The notes: generated by a model not told the origin, from the letters alone. Numbered from the stretch's first letter, positions 1,991 to 54,114 are shown. The stretch is DNA of 64,000 nt from Escherichia coli (GCF_046105845.1 NZ_CP151004.1), one strand, 5' to 3'. A program made the numbers and translations.

Positions 1991-3324
1991 AAAACATTAT
2001 CCGAACTCCCGAAACGCATCCGCTGACCTGGCGTCTGCGCGATGACAAACAGCCAGTGTGGCTGGACGAATACCGCAGCAAAAACGGTTACGAAGGCGCG
2101 CGTAAGGCGCTGACCGGGCTGTCTCCGGACGAAATCGTTAATCAGGTAAAAGACGCTGGTCTGAAAGGGCGCGGCGGCGCGGGCTTCTCGACTGGCCTGA
2201 AATGGAGCCTGATGCCGAAAGACGAATCCATGAACATCCGTTACCTGCTGTGTAACGCGGATGAAATGGAGCCGGGCACCTATAAAGACCGCCTGCTGAT
2301 GGAGCAACTGCCGCACCTGCTGGTGGAAGGTATGCTTATCTCCGCGTTTGCGCTGAAAGCGTACCGTGGCTACATCTTCCTGCGTGGCGAGTATATCGAA
2401 GCGGCAGTGAATCTGCGCCGTGCCATTGCCGAAGCCACCGAAGCGGGTCTGCTTGGCAAAAACATTATGGGAACAGGTTTCGACTTCGAATTGTTCGTCC
2501 ATACAGGGGCTGGGCGCTACATCTGCGGTGAAGAAACAGCGTTAATCAACTCCCTGGAAGGGCGTCGCGCTAACCCACGCTCGAAGCCTCCATTCCCGGC
2601 AACCTCCGGTGCATGGGGCAAACCGACCTGTGTCAATAACGTCGAAACCCTGTGTAACGTTCCGGCGATCCTCGCTAACGGCGTGGAGTGGTATCAGAAC
2701 ATCTCGAAAAGTAAAGATGCTGGCACCAAGCTGATGGGCTTCTCCGGTCGGGTGAAAAATCCGGGCCTGTGGGAACTGCCATTCGGCACCACCGCACGCG
2801 AGATCCTCGAAGATTACGCCGGTGGTATGCGTGACGGTCTGAAATTCAAAGCCTGGCAGCCAGGCGGTGCTGGTACTGACTTCCTGACTGAAGCGCACCT
2901 TGACCTGCCGATGGAATTCGAAAGTATCGGTAAAGCGGGAAGCCGTCTGGGTACGGCGCTGGCGATGGCGGTTGACCATGAGATCAACATGGTGTCGCTG
3001 GTGCGTAACCTGGAAGAGTTTTTCGCCCGTGAGTCCTGCGGCTGGTGTACGCCGTGCCGTGACGGTCTGCCGTGGAGCGTGAAAATTCTGCGCGCGCTGG
3101 AACGTGGCGAAGGTCAACCGGGCGATATCGAAACACTTGAGCAACTGTGTCGATTCTTAGGCCCGGGTAAAACTTTCTGTGCCCACGCACCTGGTGCAGT
3201 GGAGCCGTTACAGAGCGCCATCAAATATTTCCGCGAAGAATTTGAGGCGGGAATCAAACAGCCGTTCAGCAATACCCATTTGATTAATGGGATTCAGCCG
3301 AACCTGCTGAAAGAGCGCTGGTAA
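1987..3324 (+). CDS. nuoF: NADH-quinone oxidoreductase subunit F (NADH/FMN binding, 4Fe-4S)
   Basis: 445 aa; [10 protein letters not shown] and [12 protein letters not shown] motifs; ATGA overlap with nuoE. Confidence 0.95.
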
Positions 3325-3376
3325 CCGAATTTCGATTAACGCTCAGTCTCTGACTGAGAAAACTGGAAGCATGCTA

Positions 3377-6103
3377 ATGGCTACAATTCATGTAGACGGC
3401 AAAGAATACGAGGTCAACGGAGCGGACAACCTGCTGGAAGCTTGTCTGTCTCTGGGCCTTGATATTCCTTACTTTTGCTGGCATCCGGCGCTGGGAAGCG
3501 TCGGTGCTTGCCGCCAGTGTGCGGTGAAGCAATACCAAAACGCGGAAGACACGCGTGGTCGCCTGGTGATGTCCTGTATGACACCGGCTTCCGATGGCAC
3601 CTTTATTTCCATTGACGACGAAGAAGCGAAACAGTTCCGTGAAAGTGTGGTCGAGTGGTTAATGACCAACCACCCGCACGACTGTCCGGTATGTGAAGAG
3701 GGCGGTAACTGCCATCTTCAGGATATGACTGTGATGACCGGACACAGCTTCCGTCGCTACCGTTTCACCAAACGTACCCACCGTAATCAGGATTTGGGGC
3801 CATTCATCTCTCACGAAATGAACCGCTGCATCGCCTGCTACCGCTGCGTGCGTTACTACAAAGATTACGCTGACGGCACGGACCTGGGCGTTTACGGTGC
3901 GCACGACAACGTCTACTTCGGTCGCCCGGAAGACGGCACGCTGGAAAGCGAATTTTCCGGTAACCTGGTCGAAATTTGCCCGACCGGCGTATTCACCGAC
4001 AAAACGCACTCCGAGCGTTACAACCGTAAATGGGATATGCAGTTTGCGCCGAGCATCTGCCAGCAATGTTCCATCGGCTGTAACATCAGCCCCGGCGAGC
4101 GTTATGGCGAACTGCGTCGTATCGAAAACCGTTACAACGGTACGGTAAACCACTACTTCCTCTGCGACCGTGGTCGTTTCGGTTACGGTTACGTCAACCT
4201 GAAAGATCGTCCGCGTCAGCCAGTACAGCGTCGTGGCGATGATTTCATTACCCTCAACGCCGAACAGGCAATGCAGGGCGCGGCAGATATTCTGCGTCAG
4301 TCGAAGAAAGTGATCGGCATTGGTTCTCCGCGTGCCAGCGTGGAAAGCAACTTTGCGCTGCGTGAGCTGGTGGGCGAAGAAAACTTCTACACCGGTATCG
4401 CTCACGGTGAGCAGGAACGTCTGCAACTGGCGCTGAAAGTGCTGCGTGAAGGCGGCATTTATACGCCGGCACTGCGCGAAATCGAATCTTACGATGCGGT
4501 ACTGGTGCTGGGCGAAGACGTTACCCAGACCGGCGCGCGCGTCGCGCTGGCAGTTCGTCAGGCGGTGAAAGGTAAAGCACGCGAAATGGCGGCAGCACAG
4601 AAAGTGGCTGACTGGCAAATTGCGGCAATCCTCAACATCGGCCAACGTGCGAAGCATCCGCTGTTTGTTACCAACGTTGATGACACCCGTCTGGATGATA
4701 TCGCGGCGTGGACTTACCGCGCACCGGTTGAAGATCAGGCGCGTTTAGGTTTTGCCATCGCTCATGCGCTGGACAACTCCGCACCAGCGGTTGACGGTAT
4801 CGAACCTGAGCTGCAAAGCAAAATCGACGTCATCGTGCAGGCTCTGGCGGGTGCGAAGAAACCGTTGATTATCTCCGGGACGAACGCCGGTAGCGCTGAA
4901 GTGATTCAGGCTGCGGCTAACGTGGCGAAAGCCCTGAAAGGTCGCGGCGCTAACGTCGGTATCACCATGATTGCCCGTTCCGTCAACAGCATGGGGCTGG
5001 GCATTATGGGCGGTGGATCGCTTGAAGAAGCGTTAACCGAACTGGAAACCGGACGCGCCGATGCGGTGGTGGTGCTGGAAAACGATCTGCATCGTCACGC
5101 TTCCGCTACCCGCGTGAATGCTGCGCTGGCGAAAGCGCCGCTGGTGATGGTGGTTGACCATCAACGCACAGCGATTATGGAAAACGCCCATCTGGTACTT
5201 TCCGCCGCCAGCTTTGCTGAAAGCGACGGTACGGTAATTAATAATGAAGGTCGCGCCCAACGTTTCTTCCAGGTTTACGATCCGGCTTATTACGACAGCA
5301 AAACTGTCATGCTGGAAAGCTGGCGCTGGTTACACTCGCTGCACAGCACCCTGCTGAGCCGTGAAGTGGACTGGACGCAGCTCGACCACGTGATTGACGC
5401 TGTTGTGGCGAAAATCCCGGAACTGGCAGGTATCAAAGATGCTGCGCCGGATGCGACATTCCGTATTCGTGGGCAGAAACTGGCCCGTGAGCCGCACCGT
5501 TACAGCGGTCGTACCGCCATGCGCGCCAACATCAGCGTTCATGAGCCGCGTCAGCCGCAGGATATTGACACCATGTTCACCTTCTCGATGGAAGGTAACA
5601 ACCAGCCGACCGCGCACCGTTCGCAAGTGCCGTTTGCCTGGGCACCGGGCTGGAACTCCCCGCAGGCGTGGAACAAATTCCAGGACGAAGTGGGCGGCAA
5701 ACTGCGCTTTGGCGATCCAGGTGTGCGTCTGTTTGAAACCAGCGAAAACGGTCTGGATTACTTCACCAGCGTACCGGCACGCTTCCAGCCGCAGGCAGGG
5801 AAATGGCGTATCGCGCCGTACTACCACCTGTTTGGCAGCGATGAATTGTCACAGCGTGCTCCGGTTTTCCAGAGCCGTATGCCACAGCCGTACATCAAAC
5901 TTAACCCGGCGGATGCCGCGAAGTTGGGTGTGAACGCGGGCACTCGCGTCTCCTTTAGCTACGATGGCAACACGGTCACGCTGCCGGTTGAAATCGCCGA
6001 AGGGCTGACGGCAGGGCAGGTTGGCTTGCCGATGGGTATGTCCGGCATTGCTCCGGTGCTGGCGGGCGCGCATCTTGAGGATCTCAAGGAGGCACAACAA
6101 TGA
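3377..6103 (+). CDS. nuoG: NADH-quinone oxidoreductase subunit G
   Basis: 908 aa from [11 protein letters not shown]; GGAAG RBS 7 nt upstream of ATG at 3377 (ORF track starts 6 nt earlier at 3371); N-terminal ferredoxin-like Cys clusters. Confidence 0.93.
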
Positions 6104-46966: not shown

Positions 46967-48325
46967 ATGTTGAGTATTTTTAAACCAGCGCCACACAAAG
47001 CGCGCTTACCTGCCGCGGAGATCGATCCGACTTATCGTCGATTGCGTTGGCAAATTTTCCTGGGGATATTCTTTGGTTATGCTGCTTACTATTTGGTTCG
47101 TAAGAACTTTGCCCTCGCTATGCCTTATCTGGTCGAGCAGGGCTTCTCACGCGGTGATTTAGGTTTTGCCCTTTCGGGGATCTCGATCGCTTATGGATTT
47201 TCGAAATTCATCATGGGCTCGGTGTCGGATCGCTCGAATCCGCGCGTTTTCCTGCCCGCAGGTTTGATTCTGGCGGCGGCAGTGATGTTGTTTATGGGCT
47301 TTGTGCCGTGGGCGACGTCGAGCATCGCGGTGATGTTTGTACTGTTGTTCCTCTGCGGTTGGTTCCAGGGGATGGGGTGGCCGCCGTGTGGTCGTACTAT
47401 GGTGCACTGGTGGTCGCAGAAAGAACGTGGCGGCATTGTGTCAGTGTGGAACTGTGCACACAACGTCGGTGGTGGTATTCCGCCGCTGCTGTTCCTGCTG
47501 GGGATGGCCTGGTTCAATGACTGGCACGCGGCGCTCTATATGCCCGCTTTCTGCGCCATTCTGGTGGCACTGTTCGCCTTTGCGATGATGCGCGATACCC
47601 CGCAATCTTGTGGCCTGCCGCCGATCGAAGAGTACAAAAATGATTATCCGGACGACTATAACGAAAAAGCGGAACAGGAGCTGACGGCGAAGCAAATCTT
47701 CATGCAGTACGTGCTGCCGAACAAATTGCTGTGGTACATCGCTATCGCCAACGTGTTCGTTTATCTGCTGCGTTACGGCATCCTCGACTGGTCACCGACT
47801 TATCTGAAAGAGGTGAAACACTTCGCGCTGGATAAATCCTCCTGGGCCTACTTCTTCTATGAGTATGCGGGCATTCCGGGCACCCTGCTGTGCGGCTGGA
47901 TGTCGGATAAAGTCTTCCGTGGCAACCGTGGGGCCACCGGCGTCTTCTTTATGACACTGGTGACCATCGCGACTATCGTTTACTGGATGAACCCGGCAGG
48001 TAACCCAACCGTAGATATGATTTGTATGATTGTTATCGGCTTCCTGATCTACGGCCCTGTGATGCTGATCGGTCTGCATGCGCTGGAACTGGCACCGAAA
48101 AAAGCGGCAGGTACGGCAGCGGGCTTTACCGGGCTGTTTGGTTACCTGGGCGGTTCGGTGGCGGCGAGCGCGATTGTTGGCTACACAGTGGACTTCTTCG
48201 GCTGGGATGGCGGCTTTATGGTAATGATTGGCGGCAGCATTCTGGCGGTTATCTTGTTGATTGTTGTGATGATTGGCGAAAAACGTCGCCATCAGGAATT
48301 ACTGCAAAAACGCAACGGAGGCTAA
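46967..48325 (+). CDS. glpT: Glycerol-3-phosphate:phosphate antiporter (MFS)
   Basis: 452 aa, 12 TM. Confidence 0.95.
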
Positions 48326-48329
48326 TGGC

Positions 48330-49406
48330 ATGAAATTGACGCTGAAAAACCTTAGCATGGCGATCATGATGAGTGGAATGATCATGGGAAGCAGTGCAAT
48401 GGCGGCGGACAGCAACGAAAAAATAGTCATCGCCCATCGCGGTGCCAGTGGATATTTGCCGGAGCATACGCTGCCAGCAAAAGCGATGGCGTATGCGCAG
48501 GGAGCGGATTATCTGGAACAAGATTTAGTGATGACGAAGGATGACCATCTGGTTGTTCTGCATGACCATTATCTCGATCGTGTTACTGATGTTGCCGATC
48601 GTTTCCCGGATCGGGCGCGCAAAGACGGTCGTTACTACGCGATAGATTTCACGCTCGATGAAATTAAGTCACTGAAATTTACCGAAGGTTTCGATATTGA
48701 AAATGGTAAGAAAGTACAGACTTATCCGGGGCGTTTCCCGATGGGTAAATCTGACTTCCGGGTACACACTTTCGAGGAAGAGATTGAATTTGTTCAGGGG
48801 TTAAATCACTCTACCGGGAAAAATATCGGTATCTATCCAGAAATTAAAGCGCCGTGGTTCCATCATCAGGAAGGGAAGGATATTGCGGCAAAAACGCTGG
48901 AAGTGCTGAAGAAATATGGTTACAGCGGTAAGGACGACAAAGTTTATTTGCAATGTTTTGATGCCGATGAACTGAAGCGTATTAAGAATGAGCTGGAACC
49001 TAAAATGGGCATGGACCTCAATCTGGTACAGCTGATTGCCTATACCGACTGGAACGAAACTCAGCAGAAACAGCCGGACGGAAGCTGGGTTAATTACAAC
49101 TACGACTGGATGTTTAAGCCGGGGGCCATGAAACAGGTGGCGGAATATGCTGATGGTATTGGTCCGGATTATCATATGTTGATTGAGGAGACATCGCAGC
49201 CAGGTAATATCAAACTCACTGGCATGGTGCAAGATGCTCAGCAGAACAAGCTGGTAGTGCATCCTTATACCGTGCGGTCAGATAAACTGCCTGAATACAC
49301 TACTGATGTGAATCAGTTATATGATGCTCTGTATAACAAAGCGGGTGTAAATGGGCTGTTTACTGATTTCCCTGATAAGGCAGTAAAATTCCTTAATAAA
49401 GAGTAA
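48330..49406 (+). CDS. glpQ: Periplasmic glycerophosphodiester phosphodiesterase
   Basis: 358 aa from MKLTLKNLSM signal peptide; IVIAHRGASGYLPEHT motif. Confidence 0.95.
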   Translation: MKLTLKNLSMAIMMSGMIMGSSAMAADSNEKIVIAHRGASGYLPEHTLPAKAMAYAQGADYLEQDLVMTKDDHLVVLHDHYLDRVTDVADRFPDRARKDGRYYAIDFTLDEIKSLKFTEGFDIENGKKVQTYPGRFPMGKSDFRVHTFEEEIEFVQGLNHSTGKNIGIYPEIKAPWFHHQEGKDIAAKTLEVLKKYGYSGKDDKVYLQCFDADELKRIKNELEPKMGMDLNLVQLIAYTDWNETQQKQPDGSWVNYNYDWMFKPGAMKQVAEYADGIGPDYHMLIEETSQPGNIKLTGMVQDAQQNKLVVHPYTVRSDKLPEYTTDVNQLYDALYNKAGVNGLFTDFPDKAVKFLNKE

Positions 49407-49415
49407 TGCTATTGC

Positions 49416-49439
49416 AGGATGGCGTTCATGCGCCATCCT
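49416..49439 (+). terminator. Hairpin after glpQ
   Basis: 9-bp stem AGGATGGCG/CGCCATCCT. Confidence 0.45.
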
Positions 49440-49626
49440 CTGCTAAAGCGAAATAATGCTACTTCCGGTTGTTCTATTCATTAACCGGTGCATCCTGTTA
49501 AAAAAGATGCCAACATATTTGCATAAAACTCATTCGTTAAGAAAGCTAACACTGGGCATTGTTATTCCTTAAACAGTATGAATTGGGTTCAATAATAAAT
49601 TGTATTGCAGTTTATACTGTAAAGTA

Positions 49627-50697
49627 TTATTCGCATTTCGGGAAAGTAAAGAAAATATTAATGTATCTTATTAATTTATTATATTGTTCTTGAGTGAATG
49701 CTATTTGCACACCTTCAGGATAATATTCACCAGTAATAACCAGTTGTCCATTGCTGTGTTGTACCATTAAACCTTTTTTTTCCTTTGGATCTTCAAACTT
49801 AGAATTATCAAACGTGAAGATGTTATTTTCCTGTTTTGAGTAAGCAAAGAAATCTCGTGTATAGCTGAAACTATCATTTATTAATGGTGCTAACTTTTTG
49901 TCGGCGATATCGATAAGCTCACCACTTAATTTATTGATGTATTTCATTTGGTTCAATTTTTTCTGCGCTTGTACAATTTGCTTGTAGGTATTTTTAATTT
50001 CCTTAGAAGAATTCTTGAATTTATCATAGCGTTCCACGGAGGATGCGTATTTGTACCATTCTGTATTTTTCTCAGAATGTAGTAGCAGGTCTGTATATTT
50101 TTTTTGATCGCTGTAAAGTTGACTTTTAATACTTTCCTCACTGCTGGTTTTATAAGGTTTATCAGAGCTGTTTATTTTTGAAATGTCTTTTTCTGTCGGT
50201 GACTGGACCGTGTTGTGGATATTTTCTTTTATAACATGTTCATTGATGATGTTAATTGCAGTTTCATATTCATTTAAGTTTATTGTTCTTTGTGAAATAA
50301 ACCCTTCTTTGCTTTCGACACTCAAAATACCTTCGTTGTTTTCACCTCGGGTAAAGGTAAGGGTATAGGGTTCATAATCCGCTGCAAATTCATTTTTATA
50401 CGTTATGACATGTTCGACAAAATGTCTTATTGGTACGAAACCATAACTGTGAACGTCAATTTTTTGGGTCTTGATACTATCAATTGCATCTGAGGCTTTC
50501 GTGAAAAAAGCCAATAAATTAGCTATGCTGTCTGCTGAAGTTGATAACCCGTATCTACTTTGAGATATTTTTAGAAACTCATCGCAAAAAAACTCAAGTT
50601 TCGCGGTTTGTTGTGATTCTTTGTAAATTTCTGCTGGTTGCAATTTATTATTTTGTAAAATATTACAGCGAGATAAGTGAATAGATGTATTTGGCAT
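49627..50697 (-). CDS. Uncharacterised AT-rich ORF (hypothetical cytoplasmic protein, Lys/Asn/Glu-rich)
   Basis: 368-codon open frame on the ORF track; GGAA RBS 7 nt before the internal ATG at 50697 gives 356 aa; no signal peptide or TM; no motif I recognise; base composition strongly AT-rich compared with glpQ and inaA flanks. Confidence 0.7.
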   Translation of the reverse strand: MPNTSIHLSRCNILQNNKLQPAEIYKESQQTAKLEFFCDEFLKISQSRYGLSTSADSIANLLAFFTKASDAIDSIKTQKIDVHSYGFVPIRHFVEHVITYKNEFAADYEPYTLTFTRGENNEGILSVESKEGFISQRTINLNEYETAINIINEHVIKENIHNTVQSPTEKDISKINSSDKPYKTSSEESIKSQLYSDQKKYTDLLLHSEKNTEWYKYASSVERYDKFKNSSKEIKNTYKQIVQAQKKLNQMKYINKLSGELIDIADKKLAPLINDSFSYTRDFFAYSKQENNIFTFDNSKFEDPKEKKGLMVQHSNGQLVITGEYYPEGVQIAFTQEQYNKLIRYINIFFTFPKCE

Positions 50698-50766
50698 AAA
50701 TGATTCCTTGTATTGTGAGTTAACAAGATACAATCTAATCTTTGCAAAATATATTCACTATCAAAT

Positions 50767-50985
50767 TTAGCTCATTTTATTACGAAGACCTTTACGCATG
50801 GTAGAAAGTATCATTATTGTTAATAAATACGGTAATAAGTAACAAACAGATATTGATAACTTCCCTGAAAAGTTACTAGGTATCCCACTTGAAGATTGAG
50901 AATGGCTCCAGAGTAAACTGTGTACTGTTCGCCGGAGTGTCATTACTCTCAACGATCGGTTTTGACAGTGAGTCGGGCGCTTCAT
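50767..50985 (-). CDS. Possible small membrane protein upstream of the ORFan (speculative)
   Basis: 72-aa ORF with hydrophobic stretch ISVCYLLPYLLTIMILSTM; no clear RBS identified; could be non-coding. Confidence 0.2.
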   Translation of the reverse strand: MKRPTHCQNRSLRVMTLRRTVHSLLWSHSQSSSGIPSNFSGKLSISVCYLLPYLLTIMILSTMRKGLRNKMS

Positions 50986-51162
50986 ACCGGTTTCTACCTG
51001 GAGTCATTGTCACTTCTCCCAACTGGATAAATATATATCGCCAATTCACAAAGTGGGCCAAAATCAGGTGAAAACGAATTATTACGCCTGGTAAAGGCTA
51101 TAGTACAACTAAGTGTGGCGAATCAGGCAGTCTTGCATTTGTCATCAATCTCATGTCTTACA

Positions 51163-52041
51163 TCAAATTTTTCCACTCACCACGAGTTGTTCCGTACACG
51201 TTTGTAGTAAAAACAGTGGACTGCCTTCTACCGGCTTTTCTTTAGCCAGCAACGAAATCTGTCGATAGAAGGTTGGTTCGAGAGGAACGGAACACAATTC
51301 ATCTGCAATGGTTTTCAGCGTTAACTCTGGTAATAAGGCGATGCCTAATCCCTGTCGAATAAAACTGATCGCTGTATCCGGGTGATTAAATTCATATTTT
51401 ATCTGTGGGGTAATATTCTTTTCTTTAAATAGTGCCATAATGCTTAATTCATAGCGTCCTTTACTAATAATTAATGGTTCACCCATTAACTCTTCCACTG
51501 TAATAGTGCTGTTTTTTGCCAGAGCATGGTTGGGCGGTAACACTACGGTGAATTTATCCTGATAAATGGGCACGGAGTACATTCCGCTCACCGGAAAATG
51601 AACAAAACCGGCATCAATGGATTCATTCTGAAGGGAATCAATAATCGCTGTGCTATTTTCCTCAAAAGGAATAATTTTTATATTCGGATGATGAATTTCA
51701 AAGTAGCGAATCACAGCCGGTAAGATACAGGCGCAGACGCTGGGGAAACAACCAAGTCTCAGCGTTCTTTGAGGGTTCTGCTTTTCCTGCTCGGCTATCT
51801 CTTTTACTGCGTTCACTTCCCGATTAATGGCGCGCAGATGATGCATAATGCGGTGACCTGCAGAGGTCAGTTGTATAGCTTTACGGCGATCGCGTAACAG
51901 TATATTCACGCCAAGTTCTTGTTCGAGGGCAGCAATTGCCTGACTTACCGCCGACTGCGTCATGAACAATCGCTTGCTGGCTTCAGTAAAGCCACCGTAA
52001 TCCAGCACGGCGAGTAAAGAATTTATTTGGGTAAGAGTCAT
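51163..52041 (-). CDS. LysR-family transcriptional regulator (intact counterpart of K-12 yfaH fragment)
   Basis: 292 aa; N-terminal HTH FTEASKRLFMTQSAVSQAIAALE; divergent from MFS gene. Confidence 0.85.
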   Translation of the reverse strand: MTLTQINSLLAVLDYGGFTEASKRLFMTQSAVSQAIAALEQELGVNILLRDRRKAIQLTSAGHRIMHHLRAINREVNAVKEIAEQEKQNPQRTLRLGCFPSVCACILPAVIRYFEIHHPNIKIIPFEENSTAIIDSLQNESIDAGFVHFPVSGMYSVPIYQDKFTVVLPPNHALAKNSTITVEELMGEPLIISKGRYELSIMALFKEKNITPQIKYEFNHPDTAISFIRQGLGIALLPELTLKTIADELCSVPLEPTFYRQISLLAKEKPVEGSPLFLLQTCTEQLVVSGKI

Positions 52042-52192: not shown

Positions 52193-53383
52193 ATGAAAGA
52201 GAAGTTATGGACGAAGGATTTTTGGGCAATAACCATCATCAGCTTTATTATTTTCTTCGTCTTTTATGTTTTACTAACATTGTTGCCAATTTATATCTCT
52301 GACCGCTTGCATGCCTCTCCTGATAAAGCCGGTTTATTGGTGACTTTATTTTTAATTGCCGCCATTGTTATTCGCCCATTTGCCGGGCAATGGGTGGGTA
52401 AATACTCGAATAAAACTATTCTGGTGCTCTCTTCTCTGGCCTTTTTATTGGTCACAGCGTTGTATCCTTTTTGCCACTCAATTGAATCACTGCTTTTTAT
52501 TCGGGTGCTTCATGGTATTACCTTCGGGGTTATCACTACGGTAAAAGGAACGATTTCCGCGCGGCTGATCCCGGCCTCCCGACGTGGGGAGGGCATCAGT
52601 TTTTTCTCTCTGGCAATGGGGCTGGCAATGGTGGTCGGGCCGTGGATTGGCCTGAATATGGCGCGCTGGGAGGCCTTTAATATGGCTTTCTGGTTATGCA
52701 CCGGCGTGGCAGCGGTGGGGATTATTCTGTCGCTGATTATGACAGTGCCGCCGGTTATCAGCCATGCTGATGGTTCAACGCCGAAAATGGGCTTCGCCGC
52801 CATGTTCGATCGCGCGGCGTTGCCATTTGCGATGGTCACCTTTTTTATGACCTTTTCGTATGCCGGGGTTTCTGCTTTTCTGGCGCTTTATGCACGCGAA
52901 CTTAACCTGATGTCGGCAGCCAGTAATTTCCTGCTTTGCTACGCTATCTTCCTGATGATTTGCCGTACCTTTACCGGCAATGTCTGCGACAAAAAAGGAC
53001 CGAAATATGTGGTTTACCCTTGCCTTGTGTTCTTTACGGTAGGACTGGTGGTTCTCGGCTACACCCAGGGAAGCATAATGATGGTTGTTTCTGGCGCATT
53101 GATTGGTATCGGGTATGGTTCCGTGACGCCAGTTTTTCAGACGCAGATTATCAGTTCAGTGGAACCGCATAAAATCGGTGTCGCAAACTCCCTCTTCTTC
53201 AATGCGATGGATGCAGGCCTGGCGCTGGGAGCCTTTGTGATGGGGATGATGGTTGCACATACTGGCTACCGAATGATTTATCTGCTGGGTGCACTATTAG
53301 TGGTGGTGGCTGGTGGAGTCTATGCGCTGCAAATGAAGGGTAAAAGCGGTGTCGCGCTAGTAGTGGCAAAAGAAATTCATTAA
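52193..53383 (+). CDS. MFS transporter (probable LysR target)
   Basis: 396 aa, about 12 TM segments, divergently transcribed from the LysR gene. Confidence 0.85.
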   Translation: MKEKLWTKDFWAITIISFIIFFVFYVLLTLLPIYISDRLHASPDKAGLLVTLFLIAAIVIRPFAGQWVGKYSNKTILVLSSLAFLLVTALYPFCHSIESLLFIRVLHGITFGVITTVKGTISARLIPASRRGEGISFFSLAMGLAMVVGPWIGLNMARWEAFNMAFWLCTGVAAVGIILSLIMTVPPVISHADGSTPKMGFAAMFDRAALPFAMVTFFMTFSYAGVSAFLALYARELNLMSAASNFLLCYAIFLMICRTFTGNVCDKKGPKYVVYPCLVFFTVGLVVLGYTQGSIMMVVSGALIGIGYGSVTPVFQTQIISSVEPHKIGVANSLFFNAMDAGLALGAFVMGMMVAHTGYRMIYLLGALLVVVAGGVYALQMKGKSGVALVVAKEIH

Positions 53384-53463: not shown

Positions 53464-54114
53464 ATGGCAGTTTCAGCAAAGCACGACGAATTTAATCACT
53501 GGTGGGCAACAGAGGGCGACTGGGTTGAAGAGCCTAACTATCGCCGTAATGGTATGAGCGGGGTGCAATGCGTCGAGCGCAACGGCAAAAAGCTATATGT
53601 AAAGCGCATGACGCATCATCTGTTTCATTCCGTACGTTATCCGTTCGGCCGACCAACGATTGTCCGTGAGGTTGCGGTAATTAAAGAACTGGAACGGGCC
53701 GGTGTCATCGTGCCGAAGATCGTTTTTGGTGAAGCAGTGAAAATTGAGGGGGAATGGCGCGCGTTGCTGGTGACTGAAGATATGGCGGGGTTCATCAGCA
53801 TTGCTGACTGGTATGCCCAGCATGCAGTAACGCCCTATTCTGACGAAGTACGGCAAGCCATGTTGAAAGCAGTGGCGCTGGCGTTTAAGAAAATGCATAG
53901 CGTTAATCGTCAGCATGGCTGTTGCTATGTTCGCCATATCTATGTGAAAACAGAAGGTAAGGCAGAAGCTGGTTTTCTTGATCTGGAGAAAAGTCGTCGC
54001 CGCTTGCGTCGCGATAAAGCGATTAATCATGACTTCCGCCAGCTGGAAAAATATCTGGAGCCGATCCCTAAAGCGGACTGGGAGCAGGTGAAAGCGTATT
54101 ACTACGCCATGTAA
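53464..54114 (+). CDS. inaA: InaA, Kdo/WaaP-like lipopolysaccharide kinase family protein
   Basis: 216 aa. Confidence 0.9.
   Translation: MAVSAKHDEFNHWWATEGDWVEEPNYRRNGMSGVQCVERNGKKLYVKRMTHHLFHSVRYPFGRPTIVREVAVIKELERAGVIVPKIVFGEAVKIEGEWRALLVTEDMAGFISIADWYAQHAVTPYSDEVRQAMLKAVALAFKKMHSVNRQHGCCYVRHIYVKTEGKAEAGFLDLEKSRRRLRRDKAINHDFRQLEKYLEPIPKADWEQVKAYYYAM

Follow-up and report, generated by a model that had tools for sequence, protein, structure and literature searches.

AT-rich orphan genes acquired by enterobacteria form a class that is typically silenced by H-NS, and in Escherichia coli a short indel with respect to K-12, holding a hypothetical gene, is already known between inaA and glpQ. 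The locus considered here has its place beside both. It lies in a stretch of 64,000 nucleotides from an E. coli chromosome (NZ_CP151004.1), which was analysed as a whole and is called the window in what follows. In it, an AT-rich islet separates glpQ from a gene for a LysR-type regulator and carries, on its minus strand, an open reading frame (ORF) of 356 codons, ORF356. With moderate confidence, we think that ORF356 is a genuine gene that was acquired, is restricted to Escherichia, dispensable, weakly constrained and probably poorly expressed, and has been lost repeatedly.

Frame preservation in ORF356

The initial annotation of the window had pointed out a long open frame with a well-spaced ribosome-binding site, and both are present: ORF356 opens at an ATG and an AAGGAA motif stands 6 nt upstream of it. 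At the base composition of ORF356, 356 codons would stay free of stops by chance with a probability of about 4e-13, and the GC content by codon position follows the order GC1 > GC3 ~ GC2 (0.38/0.30/0.29), the pattern of true coding sequences that are rich in AT. The gene and the parts of it that matter for the argument are the following.

49627-50697, minus strand: ORF356, 356 codons
50704-50709, minus strand: AAGGAA ribosome-binding site, at 6 nt from the ATG and the same in 13/13 aligned alleles
50248-50697, minus strand: N-terminal part, codons 1-150, conserved, variable-site density 0.069
49918-50247, minus strand: central part, codons 151-260, hypervariable, density 0.188; loop and long helix as predicted by AlphaFold2 (AF2)
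49627-49917, minus strand: C-terminal part, codons 261-356, conserved, density 0.089
50410-50424, minus strand: HFVEH (H92-E95-H96), of the HxxEH type, within a predicted helix and an invariant block, a lead only
50098-50105, minus strand: A8 run, A7 in O157-type alleles (-1 frameshift); A7 is uncompensated in the 208-aa protein P0016
50066-50070, minus strand: A5 run, A6 in O157-type alleles (+1), frame restored

Fifteen uninterrupted alleles were taken from complete genomes, at matches spaced evenly down the similarity ranking to the window, and the 356 codons are open in every one of them. Ten of these alleles are labelled 'frameshifted' by the Prokaryotic Genome Annotation Pipeline (PGAP), and the window allele and nine others so flagged translate to 356 aa without an internal stop. 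O157-type alleles carry a double slip, a -1 followed by a +1 30 nt later, which puts 10 codons out of frame and whose second step restores 146 C-terminal codons. Since more divergent alleles share the frame of the window, the O157 form is the derived one. The PGAP model protein is evidently of the O157 type, with the -1/+1 pair, and thus the pseudogene labels are an artefact. The status of pseudogene was therefore rejected for ORF356, as the window allele and the other flagged alleles are open over 356 aa. Such mislabelling of intact alleles, which affects many RefSeq genomes, distorts pan-genome and pseudogene counts, and it is mostly in annotation that the practical importance of the locus lies.

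The selection tests rest on 13 aligned alleles. When the 77 unique substitutions of the unbiased set are placed at random, 3.1 stop codons are expected, and none is present in any allele (P = 0.038). Indels are also depleted, with three events in the 1071 nt of ORF356, two of them mutually compensating, versus seven in 685 nt of non-coding islet, a rate from which 10.9 would be expected in the gene (P = 0.005). Moreover, the density of variable sites, 0.149 in the non-coding islet, falls to 0.069 in codons 1-150 (Fisher P = 4e-4) and to 0.089 in codons 261-356 (P = 0.03), so that the two end parts taken together are half as dense in variable sites as the non-coding stretches (odds ratio 0.48, P = 4e-4). 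The alleles show codons 261-356 in two haplotypes, which have been shuffled among them. In codons 151-260 the density, 0.188, is above that of the non-coding islet but not significantly, and the nucleotide diversity (pi) rises to 0.145 at 50102-50201. Most simply, ORF356 is read as a protein of two domains whose middle is unconstrained.

Another group of results weighs against this reading. Pairwise maximum likelihood (ML; GY94/F3x4) gives a ratio of nonsynonymous to synonymous rates, omega, of 0.53-1.73 in six pairs, none of which rejects omega = 1 (2*deltalnL <=2.8); the same code gives 0.02-0.05 for glpQ (2*deltalnL 33-127) and about 0.2 for the LysR gene. By the Nei-Gojobori method, the ratio of nonsynonymous (dN) to synonymous (dS) divergence is 0.4-1.1 pairwise, and the value summed over 12 pairs, 0.59 for the real frame, does not fall below those of five wrong frames (0.56-0.99). 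Variable sites are distributed over the codon positions as 49/33/41, and 34 synonymous changes are observed versus 31.1 expected if 131 substitutions with the same spectrum are randomly placed (P = 0.30). Purifying selection on amino-acid replacements is not detectable. The unbiased P for the avoidance of stops is only 0.04, and the full set, with 6.7 stops expected and none seen (P = 0.0008), includes alleles picked for full length. In addition, the low diversity of the end parts could stem from recombination history and not from constraint, and the domain picture is a suggestion drawn only from secondary-structure prediction and conservation blocks. The initial annotation had named the lack of purifying selection across strains, together with disruption in most genomes, as what would speak against its own proposal. 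As to the former, amino-acid constraint cannot be detected; as to the latter, most carriers do not have the gene disrupted, 15/15 uninterrupted alleles being intact.

An omega indistinguishable from 1, and synonymous and nonsynonymous counts equal to those of random placement, are what would be seen if ORF356 were a functionless relic, that is, a donor gene drifting neutrally in Escherichia, with its frames kept intact by luck and shared ancestry. A relic would also tolerate a stretch of 10 codons out of frame, would be missing from many genomes (the islet is missing from 81%) with IS1 insertions and truncated alleles common in the rest, and would have no homologue or domain that can be found. 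We consider this explanation unlikely, though it is the main rival and has to be taken seriously. It does not account for the depletion of stops (P = 0.04, unbiased) and of frame-breaking indels (P = 0.005) or for the compensating slip of the O157 type, which recovers the C-terminal frame, and at a dS of ~0.12 several stops per lineage would be expected under it. Nor does it explain why the end parts and the 310 bp upstream are half as variable as the adjacent non-coding DNA. Returning to ORF356 as a weakly constrained gene, we think that the constraint on the end domains is real and too weak to give an asymmetry between synonymous and nonsynonymous changes in 13 alleles. ORF356 then illustrates neatly how a frame can be preserved while its residues are not conserved.

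Interrupted alleles are part of the same picture. An insertion sequence, IS1, lies inside ORF356 in one verified case (locus L012, IS1 at 883-1580), and ~6/30 evenly spaced matches look alike by score, so that roughly a fifth of the carriers have an IS1-disrupted ORF356 on this scale; if any IS1 in or beside the islet is counted, the figure is about 7/30 of the evenly spaced genome matches. In locus L013, IS1 is upstream of ORF356 (1856-2553), and in locus L014 an IS1-linked deletion (IS1 at 2977-3674) joins a remnant of ORF356 to a truncated gene for a transporter of the major facilitator superfamily (MFS). The islet is a hot spot for IS1, as expected for AT-rich DNA. Truncated forms include the 208-aa P0016, which ends at the A run, and other short forms on long contigs. 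Among the aligned alleles, the only uncompensated frameshift is a +1 in a T6 run (~50505-50510) of strain TW10509, which may be a homopolymer sequencing error in an early draft assembly.

Base composition, boundaries and distribution of the islet

The layout of the locus within the window is as follows.

46967-48325, plus strand: glpT
48330-49406, plus strand: glpQ
49414-49443, plus strand: glpQ terminator hairpin, with the left junction of the islet inside its 3' arm, after 49439
49440-51150: AT-rich islet, an indel when set against strains of the K-12 and K_EC180 types; junctions placed by blastn with empty-site loci
51163-52041, minus strand: LysR-type regulator gene
52193-53383, plus strand: MFS transporter gene
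53464-54114, plus strand: inaA

The neighbourhood of ORF356 in the 64 kb consists of glpT, glpQ, the LysR and MFS genes, inaA and nrdAB. The position of ORF356 adjoins a published virulence regulator of enterohaemorrhagic E. coli (EHEC): the neighbouring LysR gene regulates LEE, the enterocyte effacement locus (PMC10819331).

The islet has a GC content of 0.339, which is 3.2 standard deviations (sd) below the mean of the window (0.514; sd 0.054 over windows of 1.7 kb). Just 0.5% of these 1.7-kb windows are as GC-poor and every one of them is the islet itself, which surpasses any other 1.7 kb of the 64,000 nucleotides in AT content. GC stays at 0.29-0.35 over 49500-50850, with flanks at 0.45-0.59, and ORF356 has a GC of 0.33 and a GC3 of 0.30, to be compared with 0.42-0.65 for the neighbour genes. 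With an AT content well above that of the backbone and a presence that varies among strains, the islet bears the marks of xenogeneic DNA. The initial annotation had described it as an AT-rich accessory block, and both its composition and its being an indel against K-12 agree with that description. Next in AT-richness within the window comes the stretch ~14200-16850 (GC about 0.39), which holds yfbM, yfbL and elaD, the last of the ElaD/SseL family of deubiquitinases; there, the identity of the window allele to most E. coli genomes is only 90-95%.

The left junction with respect to K-12 and to strain K_EC180 is at 49440, where the strains that lack the block rejoin, and it coincides exactly with the start that the initial annotation had given. 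The right junction is at ~51150, 12 nt beyond the LysR stop. A repeat scan and junction blastn found no terminal inverted or direct repeats and no target duplication at the ends (49440/51150), and there is no integrase, transposase, other mobility gene or tRNA at the insertion, the only transposases being those of the secondary IS1 copies in some strains. An origin as a mobile element (IS, miniature inverted-repeat transposable element, integron cassette or integrative island) was rejected on account of these missing repeats, target duplication and mobility gene. The statement of the initial annotation that K-12 has no block and only about 0.4 kb with yfaH at this place proved accurate, since the K-12 interval from glpQ to inaA is 462 bp long and holds a 243-bp remnant of the C-terminal part of the LysR gene (yfaH).

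The islet was found in 1052/5426 complete E. coli genomes, always as a single chromosomal copy at this site, and it is absent in 81%. The locus exists in five states. The full one, with islet, LysR and MFS genes, is seen in 710 genomes; the others are LysR and MFS without the islet, the islet with the K-12-type deletion of LysR/MFS, the K-12 type with neither, and a B2 type in which glpQ and inaA are only ~200 bp apart. All four combinations of presence and absence of the islet and of the LysR-MFS pair are seen, though the two indels are only 243 bp apart. It follows that ORF356 and the pair have been lost independently, by recombination between the indels or by recurrent deletion.

Outside the bulk of E. 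coli, the islet is also present in the clade I strain TW10509. E. whittamii and Escherichia sp. E1V33 have no islet and keep the order inaA-MFS-LysR-glpQ with a 48-nt gap, and Kluyvera and Pseudocitrobacter have in common with the locus only the MFS-LysR pair. A similar layout is found in E. coli UCPROB-001, with a spacer of ~44 nt between glpQ and LysR; the 3' end of its LysR gene is only 76% identical to that of the window, and its resemblance to E. whittamii and Escherichia sp. E1V33 could mean the introgression of a divergent allele. Between alleles of ORF356, dS is 0.12-0.14, the same as that of glpQ in the same genome pairs, which indicates that the islet is old and has been inherited with its flanks. 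From all this we infer that the islet was acquired once, long ago, and has since been lost repeatedly and has recombined.

The proposal that ORF356 is an orphan was borne out by every search made. Zero matches were obtained with Pfam, NCBIfam, PADLOC and PHROGs, and nothing in the PDB, either by sequence or by profile. A word-indexed search of 5.8 billion proteins gave 23 clusters, all of them from Escherichia and with at least 82% identity, and an exhaustive HMMER search of 1.84 billion representative proteins yielded fragments of this protein and nothing else but a single spurious match to a cadherin-repeat protein. This remote match, P0035 (E = 1.5e-4), aligns to a beta-strand-like stretch and was rejected. 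Phage and plasmid collections, searched by tblastn and blastn, gave no true copy, the sole exception being a mislabelled E. coli chromosome. ORF356 is, therefore, a true orphan restricted to Escherichia.

Some database entries met in these searches deserve a word. NZ_CP141089.1, listed among the plasmids of PLSDB, is an E. coli chromosome of 4.9 Mb. The 3.5-kb contig JAIJJM010000334.1, filed as 'MAG: Collinsella sp.', is E. coli contamination (LysR 99%, ORF356 98%). P0023, a protein of 408 aa from a metagenome contig of 6966 bp in the European Nucleotide Archive (ENA), has an N-terminal nucleotidyltransferase of ~280 aa (PF01467/PF05636) fused in frame to residues ~14-136 of ORF356 with 98% identity; a wrongly assembled metagenome is its most likely source.

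Upstream region and possible roles

The predicted protein has 41.4 kDa, a calculated isoelectric point (pI) of 6.5 and a grand average of hydropathy (GRAVY) of -0.67, and is thus hydrophilic, with K, S, I, E and N making up 10.4, 9.6, 9.3, 8.4 and 7.6% of its residues. No transmembrane (TM) segment was found (the maximum Kyte-Doolittle value over 19 residues is 0.86), and neither a signal peptide nor a recognisable domain, in line with what the initial annotation had stated. AF2 gives a model with a mean predicted local distance difference test (pLDDT) score of 39.9, the only possible alignment having 8 sequences with at least 85% identity. The predicted secondary structure consists of helices over residues 5-104, a three-stranded sheet over 112-140 with a helix after it, then a loop at ~160-185, a long helix over 185-276, strands over 287-325 and a last helix. 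With this model of poor confidence, Foldseek gave no match to the PDB at E <= 0.001, weak matches being disregarded. An internal duplication of two beta/alpha modules was considered and rejected (BLASTP E = 14).

HFVEH is the sole motif found in ORF356. An HxxEH motif would occur by chance in a protein of this composition in ~1% of cases, and it was noticed post hoc; we regard it as a lead, the only concrete one to an activity, and not as evidence of a metalloprotease. One might nevertheless build on it a functional, new Escherichia-specific family under mixed selection, in which constrained ends would possibly form a metal-dependent hydrolase at HFVEH, the centre, whose diversity balancing or diversifying selection would maintain, would meet an external partner such as a phage or host factor, and slippage in the A run would now and then switch the gene on or off. 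We hold this to be rather improbable.

Upstream of ORF356 there are three features to consider.

50698-51007, minus strand: conserved 310 bp upstream of ORF356, density 0.061 versus 0.149, P = 3e-4
50767-50985, minus strand: 72-aa ORF of the initial annotation, not supported as a gene
50876-51007, minus strand: 43-codon ORF with a GGAG-type ribosome-binding site, annotated by PGAP in one genome and by several gene callers

The 310 bp are the least variable part of the islet, and presumably hold the promoter and a 5' untranslated region or leader. A scan of the region for the sigma-70 consensus gave no good match. As for the small ORFs, the 72-aa frame does exist at its place, but it is probably not coding: it was rejected as a gene because of an in-frame stop in TW10509 and of eight different protein sequences among 13 alleles, and it matched nothing in Pfam/NCBIfam, PADLOC (E <= 1) or PHROGs. 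The 43-codon ORF is open in 13/13 aligned alleles, with 6 nonsynonymous versus 3 synonymous changes, and frameshifted variants occur elsewhere. No homologue of it was found beyond the islet, and it is a candidate gene at most.

The low variability of this region raises the question of whether the selected element could be a nucleic acid, either a regulatory region or an unannotated RNA that covers 50698-51007 together with the 5' half of ORF356, with translation being incidental. Such an element would be consistent with the fact that in the conserved blocks of ORF356 synonymous and nonsynonymous changes are lowered together. However, the region gave no Rfam match at E <= 1, and no pair of promoter and terminator defines a small RNA upstream of ORF356; the small RNA was rejected for want of an Rfam match. 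A nucleic-acid element also leaves unexplained the depletion of stops and frameshifts and the frameshift that is compensated 600 nt downstream. We think that it is very improbable, the least probable of the explanations treated here.

The initial annotation had proposed a defence or effector-like role. In this explanation, ORF356 would be a conflict protein, be it a secreted effector of the type III systems of LEE or ETT2 or a single-gene anti-phage defence, with a centre shaped by an arms race. The N-terminus (MPNTSIHLSRCNILQNNKLQ) is, on inspection of the sequence, polar and rich in Ser, Thr and Asn, with the first acidic residue not before position 23. Polar, Ser/Thr/Asn-rich N-termini without acidic residues are common in type III substrates. 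AT-rich orphan genes are typical of effectors as well, the centre is more variable than non-coding DNA, not significantly, and the LysR gene next to ORF356 is a LEE regulator. However, no PADLOC, Pfam or NCBIfam model matches ORF356, and PADLOC-DB v2 gives 0 families at E <= 1 for both ORF356 and the 72-aa ORF. The gene lies outside any prophage, effector locus or defence island, among glpQ, LysR, MFS and inaA, and its carriers, judged by isolate origin, include canine, avian, wastewater and clinical non-O157 isolates. In the hypervariable part dS (0.16) is raised together with dN (0.10), for a ratio of 0.64, which does not fit positive selection. Moreover, the loss of ORF356 is independent of that of the LysR gene. 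A conflict protein is thus very unlikely. A defence role finds no backing, given the core metabolic neighbours, the empty PADLOC search and the lack of phage or plasmid copies, and an effector role fares no better, with no family match, a place away from prophages and effector loci, and many non-O157 carriers.

For ORF356 as an acquired and weakly constrained gene, the course of events might have been as follows. In an ancestor of E. coli, a small segment of foreign AT-rich DNA would have settled in the space between glpQ and the LysR gene, which are convergent, and the islet would have segregated since then as a presence/absence polymorphism. ORF356 would be its single real gene and encode a soluble cytoplasmic protein of 41 kDa. 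The conserved N-terminal part (aa 1-150) would comprise helices and the three-stranded sheet, with the invariant HFVEH helix, and the C-terminal part (aa 261-356) would be a conserved beta/alpha unit; the central part (aa 151-260) would tolerate almost any substitution and even the 10-codon frameshift. The frame is kept open by selection, which also slows down change in the two end parts. The gene is dispensable, since most lineages have lost it by deletion and IS1 has struck it in others, and its benefit would be at most small or conditional. Expression in ordinary growth is probably poor, given the AT-rich foreign DNA and the lack of a good sigma-70 match.

Comparison with described systems

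The M16 inverzincin metallopeptidases share with ORF356 the HxxEH signature, which is invariant in ORF356 (H92-x-x-E95-H96) and placed in a predicted helix. Beyond this motif, ORF356 has no similarity to them in Pfam or the PDB, no distal Glu ligand was identified, and its size and predicted architecture are different. With the Nle/Esp type III effectors of attaching/effacing E. coli, on inspection of the sequence, ORF356 has in common AT-richness, a polar N-terminus without acidic residues and its size, and it differs from them in having no family match, in not being prophage-borne, in its many non-O157 carriers and in the lack of a nearby chaperone gene.

The islet is, like the short inaA-glpQ indel, a block missing from K-12 with a hypothetical gene in it, and it is split from OI-97, which comprises the LysR and MFS genes, only by the 243-bp yfaH remnant that K-12 has kept. 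ORF356 is an orphan that is already catalogued but unstudied. Among the AT-rich acquired orphan genes of enterobacteria, the islet stands apart in that its insertion bears the mark of neither a mobility gene nor a repeat nor a tRNA, and ORF356 resembles them in its GC content, in having no homologue outside the genus, in its strain-variable presence and in its weak constraint.

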